Below are positions 5,208-30,030 of a DNA stretch of 30,030 nt, piece by piece (within the stretch, counting starts at the first letter, position 1; each line of letters opens with the position of its first letter). The notes beneath the pieces are model-generated. The model did no database searches, was not told the origin of the DNA, and saw nothing but the letters and a program-made list of their open reading frames with translations. This DNA is from a virus (lineage: Duplodnaviria > Heunggongvirae > Uroviricota > Caudoviricetes), in the IMG/VR virus record IMGVR_UViG_2778261231_000012; one strand, 5' to 3'. The position numbers were made by a program, and so were the translations under genes.

Positions 5208-5822
5208 TTATCTCTTTGTTGCGTTCATGGTCACATGGTAAACGAATTGGCTAAATTGGTTATCCCAGCGCCCATTATGATTAGCTGCAACTAATTGCAT
5301 TAACGCCTGCATTAACTTGCTGAACAGCAAGATTAACTTAAGTCTGTTTTTTGAACTGTCACTATCTAAGGAAACTTCTTCGGTTAATTGATTCTCGGCG
5401 TTAAAAATACCCAGTTTTGATTCTTCCATGCTGGGTTCCGTTGGATGCTGTTTAAAGTATTCAGTCAGAGTATCCTTCAGGCTCTGGATCCTTGAATCAG
5501 CAATGCTTTGTATTGATGGATTGTGTGCAAGGTCATTACGCATTGAGTTGATGGTTTTAAGTGATTTCATAAGTTCCGGGGGGATTCCCAGGTTTCCCGC
5601 CATGGATATTTTAGTATTACATTCGATTAAAAGTTTGTTTTTATCTCTTCCAAAGAGATCTTGGCAGTCACAGCATGCGCATATCCATGCTTCGACCATG
5701 CGCTCACAAAGTAGGTGAATGCGCAATGTAGTACCCACATCGTCATCGCTTTCCACTGCTCTCGCGAATAAAGATGGAAAATCAATCTCATGGTAATAGT
5801 CCATGAAAATCCTTGCATTCAT
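5208..5822 (-). CDS. hypothetical protein with HEPN-like R-N-x-x-A-H motif; candidate abortive-infection/defence moron in the lambda bor position
   Basis: 204-aa antisense ORF with GGAGG SD 4 nt before ATG; motif SMRNDLAHN at residues 94-101; locally A+T-rich DNA; transcribed against the late operon with a hairpin after its stop. Confidence 0.6.
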   Translation of the reverse strand: MNARIFMDYYHEIDFPSLFARAVESDDDVGTTLRIHLLCERMVEAWICACCDCQDLFGRDKNKLLIECNTKISMAGNLGIPPELMKSLKTINSMRNDLAHNPSIQSIADSRIQSLKDTLTEYFKQHPTEPSMEESKLGIFNAENQLTEEVSLDSDSSKNRLKLILLFSKLMQALMQLVAANHNGRWDNQFSQFVYHVTMNATKR

Positions 5823-6121: not shown

Positions 6122-6188
6122 GTGAGCCTGGGTGATGCCGTTAGGTTGCGTTTACCTCTCGGGCGGCATTGCCGTGCGACAGGCTCAC
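6122..6188 (+). promoter_or_regulatory. long nested stem-loop in the 5' leader of the 6208 gene
   Basis: gtgagcctg (6122-6130) pairs with caggctcac (6180-6188); inner atgccg (6135-6140) with cggcat (6164-6169); innermost aggt/acct; ends 5 nt before the AAGGA SD. Confidence 0.4.
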
Positions 6189-6207
6189 GCCTAAAAGGAA
6201 ATATTCC

Positions 6208-6936
6208 ATGAGTAACAAAATCATTACGCTATCTGGCGCTGCTAATGAAGTGCTTTATGCGCTGTTTTTCCGTGGCGCGTTGCTGTCTGGTGATCTGCCT
6301 TCTAAATCTGGCACAGCCGAATTGCGCGAGCTTGGTTTTGCTGAAACCAGACACACAGCAACTGAATACCAGAAAGAAAATCACTTTACCTTTCTGACAT
6401 CAGAAGGGCAGAAATTTGCCGTTGAACACCTGGTCAATACGCGTTTTGGTGAGCAGCAATATTGCGCTTCGATGACGCTTGGCGTTGAGATTGATACCTC
6501 TGCTGCACAAAAGGCAATCGACGAGCTGGACCAGCGCATTCGTGACACCGTCTCCTTCGAACTTATTCGCAATGGAGTGTCATTCATCAAGGACGCCGCT
6601 ATCGCAAATGGTGCTATCCACGCAGCGGCAATCGAAACACCTCAGCCGGTGACCAATATCTACAACATCAGCCTTGGTATCCAGCGTGATGAGCCAGCGC
6701 AGAACAAGGTAACCGTCAGTGCCGATAAGTTCAAAGTTAAACCTGGTGTTGATACCAACATTGAAACGTTGATCGAAAACGCGCTGAAAAACGCTGCTGA
6801 ATGTGCGGCGCTGGATGTCACAAAGCAAATGGCAGCAGACAAGAAAGCGATGGATGAACTGGCTTCCTATGTCCGCACGGCCATCATGATGGAATGTTTC
6901 CCCGGTGGTGTTATCTGGCAGCAGTGCCGTCGATAG
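6208..6936 (+). CDS. hypothetical protein (242 aa), unknown function, immediately upstream of cos
   Basis: ORF with AAGGA SD 7 nt upstream of ATG 6208; no motif I can recognise. Confidence 0.65.
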   Translation: MSNKIITLSGAANEVLYALFFRGALLSGDLPSKSGTAELRELGFAETRHTATEYQKENHFTFLTSEGQKFAVEHLVNTRFGEQQYCASMTLGVEIDTSAAQKAIDELDQRIRDTVSFELIRNGVSFIKDAAIANGAIHAAAIETPQPVTNIYNISLGIQRDEPAQNKVTVSADKFKVKPGVDTNIETLIENALKNAAECAALDVTKQMAADKKAMDELASYVRTAIMMECFPGGVIWQQCRR

Positions 6937-27098: not shown

Positions 27099-27332
27099 AT
27101 GAGAAAACTGATTATCTGCATGGCAGGCGCTGTCATGCTTACAGGATGCGCTGGCGTAATTGAGAAACAGGAACCAGTTTGCAGCGGCACTGCAATCGTT
27201 GGCGGTCAGGAAACTACGGTTCAGATTTACGGTGTGCGTAAACAAAACAACCAGACGCAGTACCGGGCTGGATATCCTTTCAGCTGGCGCTGGGTAAGTG
27301 CGAATACATTTACCGAAACAACCTGCAAATAA
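27099..27332 (+). CDS. small lipoprotein moron (candidate Cor-like superinfection-exclusion lipoprotein)
   Basis: 77 aa; signal peptide with lipobox LTGC (MRKLIICMAGAVMLTGCAG); own upstream AT-rich region and downstream intrinsic terminator; located between J-distal ORFs and the side tail fibre. Confidence 0.6.
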   Translation: MRKLIICMAGAVMLTGCAGVIEKQEPVCSGTAIVGGQETTVQIYGVRKQNNQTQYRAGYPFSWRWVSANTFTETTCK

Positions 27333-27351
27333 CCCACTACGCTTAAACATA

Positions 27352-27376
27352 AACCTCGCTCCGGCGGGGTTTTTTT
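27352..27376 (+). terminator. intrinsic terminator after the lipoprotein gene
   Basis: cctcgc-tccccg-gcgggg hairpin followed by TTTTTTT. Confidence 0.6.
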
Positions 27377-27392: not shown

Positions 27393-28226
27393 ATGCTTTA
27401 TAACACCGGCACCATCGCCATTAATGGAAATACCGCCACCGGGACGGGTACAAACTGGACGGCACCGGCCAGCCAGGTCCGCGCTGGCCAGACGATTATC
27501 GTGATGTCTAACCCGGTGCAGCTGTTTCATATTTCATCCGTGAACAGCGCCACGTCAATGACGGTTACGCCTGCCGCTTCCCCGGCGCTGAGCGGCCAGA
27601 AATACGCCATTCTGGTGTCAGACATTATCTCCGTGGACGGACTGGCCCAGGCAATGTCGCAGCTCATCAAAGAGTATGACGAGAACATTGGCGCGTGGGA
27701 GACGTTCGCCACTACCTCAGCAAACCAGACCATCACCGTTACCATCAACGGGACCACCGTAACCATCCCTGGCATCGGTAAACTGGCACAGAAAGGGAGC
27801 AACGGTGCGGTTACTGTCGCAGACGGCGGAACCGGCGCAACGAATGCCGCAGACGCTCGCACAAACCTTGGTTTGGGAACAGCGGCGCAGCGAAATGTGG
27901 GAACGGGTGCAAATCAGATCCCAGATATGAATTCATTCACATCTCAAAAGTCATTGACCGGATGGCAAAAATTGCCTGGTGGATTGATTTTACAGTGGGG
28001 GCTGACAACAACCTCTGGGTCAGAGCAAAACGCACTGGTAACATTTCCTGTGGCATTTCCGGGATCAATACTGATGGAATATACGACATATGCAAACATC
28101 TCCGGCGACCCAGCAACCGGATCAACATACATTGGCCAGGTCAGAACAACGAGTAATACACAAATGTATGTTCGCAATCTTGGGCCGACTAATGCTCAAT
28201 ATAACTGGCTAGTAATCGGATATTAA
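27393..28226 (+). CDS. side tail fibre protein (constant N-terminal part plus currently expressed variable C-terminal cassette Sv)
   Basis: ATG 27393 with GGAG SD; N-terminus [19 protein letters not shown] and motif [21 protein letters not shown] typical of phage tail fibres; gix-like crossover site lies inside the gene at 27856-27881. Confidence 0.85.
27856..27881. repeat. left crossover site of the invertible segment (gix/hix-like, 12+2+12 bp)
   Basis: ctcgcacAAACC-TT-GGTTTgggaaca; inner half is a perfect inverted copy of 29397-29408. Confidence 0.7.
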
Positions 28227-28236
28227 GGGAGGGGGT

Positions 28237-28641
28237 ATGTATTACGCTAAATCTACAGGTGGATTTTATACGCCTGAAATTAACGGAAAAAATATTCCTG
28301 ATGATGCTATTGAAATCACGGAAGATGAATACTTGGGATTATTGCAGGCTCAGGCTGACGGGAAAATAATTACCTCAGATGATAAGGGGAATCCGGTTGC
28401 AATCGATCCGCCGCCATTGACGCAAGAAGAACTTGTTGCGCAGGCTGAACGCGAAAAGGCTTCTTTGTTAAAGCAAGCAACGAATTCGATTGCGCCGTTA
28501 CAGGATGCTTCCGACCTTGGTATTGCGACAGATGAAGAAATTAAACAGCTTACTGACTGGAAAAAATATCGGGTGCAGCTGATGCGTGTTGATACATCAA
28601 AAGCACCCGCTTTCGAGTGGCCTACATCTCCGGCTGATTAG
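28237..28641 (+). CDS. tail fibre assembly protein (Tfa)
   Basis: 134 aa; GGGAGGGGG SD; C-terminus [23 protein letters not shown] matches the recalled Tfa family signature. Confidence 0.85.
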
Positions 28642-29056
28642 GCCAAGTAATATCCGGGGCCGCTGAAGTATCGACGGCTTCAATATTATCCAGGTAATCC
28701 AGCCACGCGTTATATCTCGCTTTATCCGTGTCTTTTAAGCGGCCCATAGCCGCTTTCCCTGGCCACTGATTGCTGTTTATGTAGTCGTTTGCAGCATCAG
28801 TTAGGCTCTGCTTTTCAACCTCCGCTTGCGCCACAATTTCTTCATGGGTCGGAGGGGGAATGTCTTCCCATTCAGGTAGTCCATTTGTTCCAGCTACTCT
28901 TTTTTTCCCTTCGGGAGGCTCTCCCGTAAATTCGCTGTATAACTGTTCTGTTACCTCAACTGCATCCTCTGGCCAACCGATGCCATTGATATAATCATCT
29001 TTAAGCTCAAGCGGGAAAAAGCTGTTGTGTTTAGCGCTATAAAAATATGTGTTCAC
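28622..29056 (-). CDS. alternative tail fibre assembly protein (Tfa')
   Basis: Minus-strand ORF with C-terminus [24 protein letters not shown]; likely GTG start at 29056 ([14 protein letters not shown], parallel to the + strand Tfa start [11 protein letters not shown]) preceded by GGGAG SD; track start 29119 is an extension. Confidence 0.7.
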
Positions 29057-29057
29057 G

Positions 29058-29405
29058 TTAGCTCCCAATAGCAAAAAAGTATGCATTGAAACCGCCCGCA
29101 CCGGACATGTACGCCCCAAATCCTGCGCCGTTAACGGTGTTATTCACCACTGCCAGAGTTGGCGATGGGGTTCCACCTGAAAAGTTAATATCAGCAAATG
29201 TAAGCTGAATATTGCTCACCACACTGGGAAAATTGATAGGGAATGGAACTGAAATCTGTGTTTGCCCCACAGGAAAACCCGCTTTTCCCCACTGTAAGAT
29301 TTTCCCACCTGGCAATTTTTGCCACCCACTAGCGTTGGTAAAGCTGGACATATCAGGTATCTGTCCGGCACCGGCTCCTACGTTCTTCGTTGCTGCTGTT
29401 CCCAA
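29058..29405 (-). CDS. alternative tail-fibre C-terminal cassette (Sv'), silent in this orientation
   Basis: Minus-strand ORF whose N-terminal part ([39 protein letters not shown]) is paralogous to the + strand fibre segment after the crossover site; no own start; in-frame fusion to the fibre N-terminal part would result from inversion. Confidence 0.7.
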   Translation of the reverse strand: MGTAATKNVGAGAGQIPDMSSFTNASGWQKLPGGKILQWGKAGFPVGQTQISVPFPINFPSVVSNIQLTFADINFSGGTPSPTLAVVNNTVNGAGFGAYMSGAGGFNAYFFAIGS

Positions 29406-29422
29406 ACCAACCTTTCAAATAT
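29397..29422. repeat. right crossover site of the invertible segment
   Basis: tgttcccAAACC-AA-CCTTTcaaatat; inner half identical (inverted) to the left site; about 60 bp upstream of the invertase gene. Confidence 0.7.
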
Positions 29423-29449
29423 TTTTCTGAATCAGGTGATATTTCGCCT

Positions 29450-29476
29450 CTTCTCCTGTTTTTACAACAGGAGAAG
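29450..29476 (+). promoter_or_regulatory. perfect 11-bp hairpin sequestering the invertase Shine-Dalgarno
   Basis: cttctcctgtt-tttac-aacaggagaag; 3' arm contains AGGAG located 8 nt upstream of the invertase ATG. Confidence 0.45.
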
Positions 29477-29481
29477 CACTC

Positions 29482-30030
29482 ATGATTTACGGTTATGCCC
29501 GAGTATCAACAAACCACCAGGACACTGAATTGCAACTAACGGCGCTCAAGTCAGCGGGTTGTGAGAAAATTTTTGAAGAGCATGCCAGCGGGAGGAAATC
29601 GAATCGGCCGGTTCTAAAACGGCTGATCGCCACTATGCAGCCGGGGGATGAACTGGTGGTCTGGAAGCTGGACAGGATAGGCCGCAACGTTCTGCATGCG
29701 CTGTTGATGTTCCAGCAGTTACAGGAAAAGGGTATCAACTTCCGCAGTATTACCGATGGCGTGGATCTCAAAACAGCCAGCGGCCGCTATAACTTTCGTA
29801 ACATCCTTTCCGCAGCACAATATGAATCTGATCTTAATAGCGAACGTACCTTAGCAGGGCTGGCCGTAGCCAGGGCAAAAGGGCGAGTTGGTGGTCGCAG
29901 GCCTAAGTTCACGGATGAGCAATGGCGGGAAATGGGGGAGCGGATGGCAACCGGTGAATCACGACAAAGCGTATCAAAAACGTATGGAGTAGGGCTCTCA
30001 ACTCTGTATAAAAAGTTTCCAGCTAGCTGA
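29482..30030 (+). CDS. site-specific DNA invertase, serine recombinase of the Hin/Gin/Pin/Cin family
   Basis: 182 aa; N-terminal catalytic motif YARVSTNHQD, VVWKLDRIGRN, C-terminal HTH ending GLSTLYKKFPAS as in recalled Hin/Pin sequences. Confidence 0.9.
   Translation: MIYGYARVSTNHQDTELQLTALKSAGCEKIFEEHASGRKSNRPVLKRLIATMQPGDELVVWKLDRIGRNVLHALLMFQQLQEKGINFRSITDGVDLKTASGRYNFRNILSAAQYESDLNSERTLAGLAVARAKGRVGGRRPKFTDEQWREMGERMATGESRQSVSKTYGVGLSTLYKKFPAS

Follow-up and report, generated by a model that had tools for sequence, protein, structure and literature searches.

A probable invertible switch of host range, of the Pin type, in the side tail-fibre gene of a lambdoid (phi80/N15/mEp237-like) Escherichia coli prophage

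Does a tail-fibre gene that is followed by a second, oppositely oriented fibre end and by a gene for a serine DNA invertase form a working switch of host range, or only the remains of one? The question is raised by a 30,030-nucleotide stretch of viral DNA, IMG/VR record IMGVR_UViG_2778261231_000012 (the whole of this stretch is called the window hereafter), which is identical to the E. coli draft contig NNZM01000015.1 (GCA_002545375.1) and represents the late half of a lambdoid E. coli prophage. A first-pass annotation, made from the letters alone, had proposed an invertible switch near the end of the window, with two fibre ends (Sv and Sv') and two tail-fibre assembly chaperones (Tfa and Tfa') between inverted crossover sites. 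We conclude, with good confidence, that the locus is a Pin-type (Din-family) invertible host-range switch acting on the side tail fibre of a phi80/N15/mEp237-like lambdoid E. coli prophage. The features on which this conclusion turns are as follows (ORF, open reading frame; HTH, helix-turn-helix).

27393..27867, plus strand: constant N-terminal part of the side tail-fibre gene, codons 1-158 (ORF; PDB 7LZJ and 7VYV, E 3e-13)
27856..27881, plus strand: left crossover site, pix-like, 12-2-12, CTCGCACAAACC TT GGTTTGGGAACA, with the core TT at 27868-27869, within the fibre ORF
27868..29410, no strand: invertible segment, 1543 bp from core to core (99.35-100% identity over exactly 1543 bp at more than 20 loci in four phage backgrounds)
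27870..28226, plus strand: Sv, the currently expressed variable fibre C-terminus, 118 aa and stop (Pfam Gp53-like_C, E 8e-16; PDB 6CL5, 6CXB)
28237..28641, plus strand: tfa, the tail-fibre assembly chaperone paired with Sv, 134 aa (Caudo_TAP, E 8e-35; Mu TfaU 5YVQ, E 4e-10)
28622..29056, minus strand: tfa', the chaperone paired with Sv', 144 aa (Caudo_TAP, E 5e-33)
29058..29410, minus strand: Sv', the silent alternative fibre C-terminus, 116 aa and stop (Gp53-like_C, E 1e-12)
29397..29422, minus strand: right crossover site, minus-strand reading ATATTTGAAAGG TT GGTTTGGGAACA, with the core at 29409-29410
29450..29476, plus strand: hairpin with an 11-bp stem that holds the invertase ribosome-binding site AGGAG (29469-29473), from the fold of 29423-29500
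29482..30030, plus strand: serine DNA invertase, PinL type, 182 aa, complete (Pfam Resolvase and HTH_7; Gin 3UJ3, E 1e-56)

The two crossover sites are each 26 bp long, lie in inverted orientation with the same 12-2-12 layout, and have identical core dinucleotides (TT). Core and inner half together form a perfect inverted 14-mer, TTGGTTTGGGAACA, of which the 30-kb window contains exactly two copies, one per strand; 0.02 such pairs are expected by chance, and two matches were found in none of 100 dinucleotide-preserving shuffles. The claim that two 26-bp sites share a perfectly inverted 14-bp inner half therefore stands, and so does the placement of the left site at the N-L-G-L-G-T-A codons of the fibre gene: the site spans the codons T-N-L-G-L-G-T-A, and its core TT supplies bases 2-3 of fibre codon 159. 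The full AAACC-NN-GGTTT core has a single occurrence in the whole window, namely the left site. A repeat finder stretches the arms of the inverted repeat to 67 nt with 72% complementarity, and this extension arises because the Sv and Sv' fibre ends have a conserved protein motif in common.

Only two crossover sites are present in the segment. A multi-inversion system, such as Min of p15B or a shufflon, is ruled out by this number. A partial copy of the left-site core and inner half is present within tfa (28514-28531, ACCTTGGTATTGCGACAG, 78%), in direct orientation and lacking a matching outer half, and is probably a chance match. A tyrosine-recombinase inverton of the Fim type or of the Rci type is also ruled out, as the adjoining enzyme is a serine recombinase. 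It should be mentioned that the left site falls on a motif of the fibre that non-invertible fibres have conserved as well. An unrelated 1278-aa fibre ORF in another viral record (IMG/VR IMGVR_UViG_3300009174_000002, L020:6786-6811) contains a 34-nt, 97% match to it and has no invertible segment at all; the sequence of the site is therefore also that of a motif widely conserved in fibres. A search of viral and metagenome contigs for the junction pattern gave a single match, an unrelated large fibre gene with the NLGLGTAA motif.

The fibre gene of the window reads as a single ORF of 277 aa (27393-28226). Residues 2-97 are similar to the particle-anchor domain of phage depolymerases (7LZJ and 7VYV), the constant part has 83-100% DNA identity in other phi80-like prophages, and the tip formed by Sv is akin to the fibre tips of R-type pyocins (6CL5 and 6CXB). 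Sv and Sv' are 43% identical overall, with about 78% identity over the first 45 residues and about 20% over the distal 70, and the two chaperones are 35% identical. On the basis of these divergent distal residues and of the R-pyocin-like tip, the two tips would recognise different receptors, probably lipopolysaccharide by analogy with R-pyocin fibre tips. The two sets of variable end and chaperone face each other, tfa and tfa' overlapping by 20 bp tail to tail; in other words, both the ORFs and the Pfam matches agree with the order that the first-pass annotation had given, Sv-tfa on the plus strand and tfa'-Sv' on the minus strand. The gene tfa' starts with GTG, one base past the Sv' stop and with GGGAG upstream, and has an alternative ATG at 29086. 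The same annotation had noted that Sv' has no start of its own, and this is what we find: a TGA two codons beyond the site closes its frame, neither promoter nor ATG nor ribosome-binding site of its own is present, and its sole in-frame start is a TTG within the crossover site itself. When 27868..29410 is inverted in silico, the 158-aa constant part is joined in frame to Sv' to give a 275-aa fibre, followed by tfa', so that the predicted fusion at the central dinucleotides is reproduced on the computer. All five ORFs (fibre, tfa, tfa', Sv', and invertase) are intact.

The enzyme that adjoins the segment is a small serine recombinase with the catalytic residues Ser9 (in YARVST), Asp64, Arg65, and Arg68 and a C-terminal HTH, and it matches Mu Gin (3UJ3) over its full length. 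Its sequence is 100% identical to the invertase of mEp237, 99.5% identical to pinL of phi80, and 50-56% identical to Hin, Cin, Gin, and PinE (51-52% for Gin and Cin, 55% for PinE), a pattern that therefore places it in a separate PinL clade of the Din family. An identical protein is encoded on more than 1000 contigs. The region of the hairpin (29423-29500) folds with -25.6 kcal/mol (z -4.2), and the hairpin has a conserved counterpart in phi80, whose annotation lists it simply as IR3; it possibly acts as a brake on translation that keeps the invertase low. A promoter scan gave results at chance level and supports no invertase promoter, and Rfam had no match in the window.

The proposed mechanism would run as follows. 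The 182-aa serine invertase would bind the two 26-bp sites, cut both of them at the 2-bp TT core, and rotate the strands, by which the 1543-bp segment would be inverted. In the sequenced orientation, late transcription would yield the fibre made of residues 1-158 and Sv, together with the chaperone Tfa; after inversion, the same promoter and N-terminal anchor would be joined in frame to Sv' and then to Tfa'. A lysogen population would then release virions with either of two receptor-binding tips. We infer that the PinL-type enzyme of this prophage carries out the inversion at a useful rate, and that Fis or an enhancer would be needed for it.

The closest counterpart among known systems is the P segment with PinE of e14, the cryptic prophage of E. 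coli K-12, which has the identical gene order stfP-tfaP-tfaE'-stfE'-pinE. Its pix sites, CTCTCGAAAACC TT GGTTTGGGAGAA and TTTTCATAAACG TT GGTTTGGGAGAA, have the same 12-2-12 layout and the same TT core; the inner half GGTTTGGGAGAA is almost the same as GGTTTGGGAACA here, the same kind of degenerate outer half lies on the invertase side, and in both elements the invertase gene begins about 70 bp outside the right site, 72 bp in the window. Inversion of the e14 P segment has been shown experimentally (PMC4272514), whereas in the prophage of the window it is predicted. The two differ in the invertase (55% identical), in the fibre N-terminus and both tips, which are other sequences, and in the particle, a Mu/P2-like baseplate in e14 as against a siphovirus tail with J and cor here. 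The G segment of Mu with Gin and the C segment of P1 with Cin share with the window the serine invertase fold and catalytic residues, one site in the fibre gene where the constant part meets the variable one, and two opposed sets of variable S and U/Tfa genes; the Tfa of the window matches TfaU of Mu. The G segment is about 3 kb and the C segment about 4.2 kb long, and both have longer repeats. In Gin and Cin the invertase identity falls to 51-52%, and a Fis enhancer is known in gin and cin but none is recognisable here. The sites hixL and hixR of Salmonella Hin have one half-site and the core (14 bp) in common, their outer halves differ, and the outer half on the invertase side is a poor match. 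This is the site pattern of the window, although Hin flips a promoter and not a coding cassette. Thus the architecture of Mu G, P1 C, and e14 P that had been proposed for the locus is confirmed by the e14 gene order, by the pix sites, and by the invertase matches. The remark that the switch is compact and sits in a lambda-like tail holds for the tail, which is lambdoid (Nu1, J, cor, Q, and lysis genes; late region 97.7% identical to mEp237), and does not hold as something unusual: the e14 P segment is 1797 bp long (PMC12529663) as compared with 1543 bp here, and thousands of E. coli genomes hold such invertible cassettes.

The nearest relatives of the prophage itself tell a different part of the story. 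Both phi80 (pinL) and mEp237 have the near-identical invertase at the prophage end, adjoining attP and yciI, a right-hand relic site ending CCTTTCAAATAT, and the same cor, terminator, and fibre N-terminus. Unlike the window, they have a single, long fibre gene that is fixed, and a dinI/msgA gene stands where the cassette would be. In phi80, a premature stop interrupts pinL (L002:3953-4501) at codon 173, within the HTH, and of the two sites only a right-hand relic is left, whereas the invertase of the window is intact; in mEp237 the invertase is intact, but the core of the left site is TC and that of the right relic site TT (L022:1509 and 3508). From their sequences, phi80 and mEp237 look like locked relics, and the window is best regarded as the complete two-cassette form of the system whose relics were annotated in them. 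The best match among E. coli genomes (L001) has degenerate sites and a frameshifted tfa', because of which it could not be used in a census of orientations.

Is the segment then seen in both orientations? Loci were found by tracing the exact Tfa and Tfa' proteins to their contigs, and four phage backgrounds emerged:

phi80-like siphovirus at yciI/tonB: 12 samples; invertase 91-100% identical (11 samples; one contig without the invertase gene); all in the window orientation
myovirus with baseplate-wedge genes: 2 samples; invertase 89% identical; window orientation
Mu-like prophage: 2 samples; invertase 85% identical; opposite orientation
P2-like prophage: 4 samples; invertase 54% identical; three in the opposite orientation and one in the window orientation

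The P2-like background, with its different invertase, supplies the decisive pair. Two contigs of 2194 nt, L043 (SRR9984655) and L044 (ERR9738110), carry the cassette in opposite orientations, joined at TT/AA cores, between identical flanks (632 of 632 positions on the fibre side and 19 nt on the invertase side). It follows that, in nature, this cassette is inverted at the positions predicted for the cores. For the PinL clade, related cassettes point the same way, though indirectly. Among phi80-like siphovirus backgrounds with PinL-type invertases, E. coli 730V1 (L023) on the one hand and ES5 and EC2001 on the other have 86-91%-identical related cassettes in opposite orientation, and two wedge-type remnants at yciI, PSJ-22 (L045) and isolate 44 (L046), have 95%-identical cassettes that are inverted relative to each other, the cassette of isolate 44 being locked by deletion of its left site. 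Queries in native and in-silico-flipped form showed that the same O157:H7 prophage loci differ in the orientation of their Pin cassettes between closely related strains, and read-level evidence for inversion in e14, Mu, and P2-like prophages of E. coli has been published (PMC4272514). Two further searches gave no close match: none was obtained when the segment by itself was compared by megablast with complete E. coli genomes, and a search for related loci with Tfa found none in genome contigs and only distant relatives in viral contigs.

Several observations weigh against a switch that works in the phi80-like prophages themselves, and most of them speak for another explanation, that the system is structurally intact but effectively locked and that the phi80-like segment inverts no longer or extremely rarely. 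None of the 12 phi80-like samples is inverted. The predicted Sv' fusion fibre was absent by exact look-up in a collection of 15 billion proteins, none of the best 120 relatives in a homology search combined an Sv' tip with an N-terminus of the phi80 type, and the closest full-length relatives of the predicted fusion are only about 75% identical to it. The ribosome-binding site of the invertase is buried in a stable hairpin. The PinL clade, only 50-56% identical to Gin, Cin, Hin, and PinE, diverges from them in the helix-E region, and a crude motif scan of the 5' part of the invertase gene found no convincing pair of Fis-like motifs, while the same scan placed such motifs at homologous points of cin, pinE, and gin. 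(In nt 1-250, members of the PinL clade show less synonymous divergence than in the rest of the gene, which is suggestive, but mosaicism could account for it.) Finally, decayed versions of the system are frequent in close relatives: the stop in pinL of phi80, the TC and TT cores of mEp237, and the sites and tfa' of L001. We regard a locked segment as rather unlikely all the same, and equally doubtful the accompanying idea that the second cassette is a recently acquired, not yet decayed passenger on its way to the relic state of phi80 and mEp237. The cores and inner halves of the two sites are still identical, none of the five ORFs is broken, the identical invertase is present on more than 1000 contigs, and related cassettes occur in both orientations beside the same invertase clade. 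Several lineages are represented in the 12 samples (the fibre N-termini are 83-100% identical, and the J proteins range from 1159 to 1308 aa), but for cassette and pin the identity is 99.7% or more throughout; the 12 observations are possibly not independent, because homologous recombination may have spread cassette and pin together as a single block. In addition, Pin and Din invertases are able to act in trans on the sites of other prophages (PMC12529663), and therefore a co-resident enzyme could flip the segment.

Two other explanations have to be set beside the host-range switch. In e14, whose site types are nearly the same, the StfE2 fusion made by PinQ from the P segment reportedly blocks the adsorption of other phages (PMC12529663), and it might be supposed that the inverted fibre protein of the window likewise serves mainly the host. 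We hold this to be improbable, since the late region is complete, with genes for terminase, head, and tail as well as J, cor, and the genes for lysis, and since the fibre carries an N-terminal particle-anchor domain, and therefore use in the virion is the simpler reading. Alternatively, the inverted repeat might have nothing to do with site-specific recombination and be a by-product of two homologous fibre genes that face each other; the 67-nt arms do derive from the motif common to Sv and Sv', and that motif gives the 34-nt match to the left site in the non-invertible fibre gene described above. Such an origin is extremely improbable in view of the perfect 14-mer in a 12-2-12 pix layout with the same core as e14, the Gin-like invertase next to the segment, and the fact that identity to unrelated phages stops at the cores, and it is contradicted by the pair L043 and L044, in which the cassette is inverted between identical flanks with its junctions at the cores.

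The host-range switch thus remains our preferred interpretation, and the distribution of the segment adds a further aspect to it. The same 1543 bp, 99.35-100% identical, are found in the phi80-like, wedge-type myovirus, Mu-like, and P2-like backgrounds. No alignment of the segment runs past the cores into unrelated flanking DNA: on either side the match stops at the core dinucleotides, and in comparisons with the myovirus backgrounds it is lost within a few bases of each core. The Sv' tip is joined at LGLGTAA to at least three other fibre N-termini and is expressed as a fusion in Mu-like and P2-like prophages, and members of the cluster in the protein collection come from E. coli, Enterobacter asburiae, and Citrobacter freundii. 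A complete genome, E. coli 730V1 (NZ_CP061764.1), contains a 1.88-kb sister cassette in two prophages, the phi80-like one at about 2.816 Mb (L023) and a P2-like one at about 4.913 Mb (L052), which has its own invertase. These two copies are 99.9% identical, have opposite orientations, and lose their identity at the cores.

We speculate from this pattern that the segment is a self-contained, portable host-range module, moved between unrelated co-resident prophages by Din-type invertases, with the sites as a universal docking port; we put this forward tentatively, as a possibility that falls short of an even chance. A corollary would be that in phi80-like prophages the hairpin covering the ribosome-binding site all but shuts off the invertase, and this would account for the one orientation observed in them. 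According to a proposal of Sandmeier from 1994, as it is cited in a later paper (PMC3945230), invertases drive the exchange of tail-fibre modules. That proposal predicts identical cassettes in unrelated phages that end at the crossover cores, as found here, and the identity of our cassettes up to the cores fits it. The data give the pattern, and the pattern does not by itself identify the enzyme responsible; the role of the enzyme is not proved, because other routes of recombination within the 14-19 shared bases are possible.

The DNA on the invertase side of the segment has variation of its own. The spacer from the right core to the invertase gene is 71 bp long (29411-29481), and two distinct 71-bp spacers with their outer half-sites, one with CCTTTCAAATAT in the window and the other with CCTTTTTTATAA at L010:4675-4745, precede invertase genes that are at least 99.8% identical. 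The second type of spacer also adjoins the 85%-identical invertase of a Mu-like prophage (L016). The difference between the spacers is best read as marking a mosaic joint just outside the right site. One and the same 182-aa invertase, WP_000639140.1, adjoins yciI at the end of the prophages of E. coli L6-21, PSJ-22, and ES8 (L024, L045, and L047), and the tail modules of this set differ considerably (siphovirus, Mu-like baseplate, and wedge-type myovirus); thus the att-proximal invertase end is common to several morphotypes.

As for the remainder of the window, it contains the genes for NinB, RusA, Q, holin, lysozyme, a DUF2514 protein, and Nu1, followed by J (1183 aa), two small ORFs, and the Cor lipoprotein, after which come the terminator, the fibre, and the invertase. 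The structural region matches that of Escherichia phage Phi06_2987 S at 99.2% identity and that of mEp237 at 97.7%; for N15 and phi80 the value is about 91%. In the relatives, the invertase is the last prophage gene before attR, adjoining yciI and tonB, the attachment site of phi80. The gene for the exclusion lipoprotein Cor (27099-27332) has 100% DNA identity in seven of the related loci that were compared. Between it and the fibre gene, directly upstream of the latter, lies a strong terminator (27351-27372), and fibre expression therefore requires read-through, as in phi80. Between the lysis genes and Nu1 there are two ORFs, one on the minus strand (5208-5822, 204 aa, no Pfam match) and one on the plus strand (6169-6936, 255 aa, a weak match to Phage_Tail_Tip), which look like morons; in comparison, the stretch that holds them is absent from mEp237.

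As a switch, the system is a textbook mechanism in a new carrier. Automated annotation splits such systems into a "gp53-like domain protein", a "tail fiber assembly protein", and a "recombinase", and in this way the switch goes unrecognised. The comparison of the two tips marks about 70 residues of the fibre as the likely determinants of specificity, which is useful for the engineering of host range. The cassettes shared up to their cores give support at the level of single base pairs to the old idea that fibre tips and their chaperones travel between unrelated phages as site-delimited cassettes, and they provide concrete genome pairs for testing cassette exchange, such as the two prophages of E. 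coli 730V1. For the biology of the phage, the consequence would be that a phi80-like temperate phage could hedge between two receptors, if the switch works.

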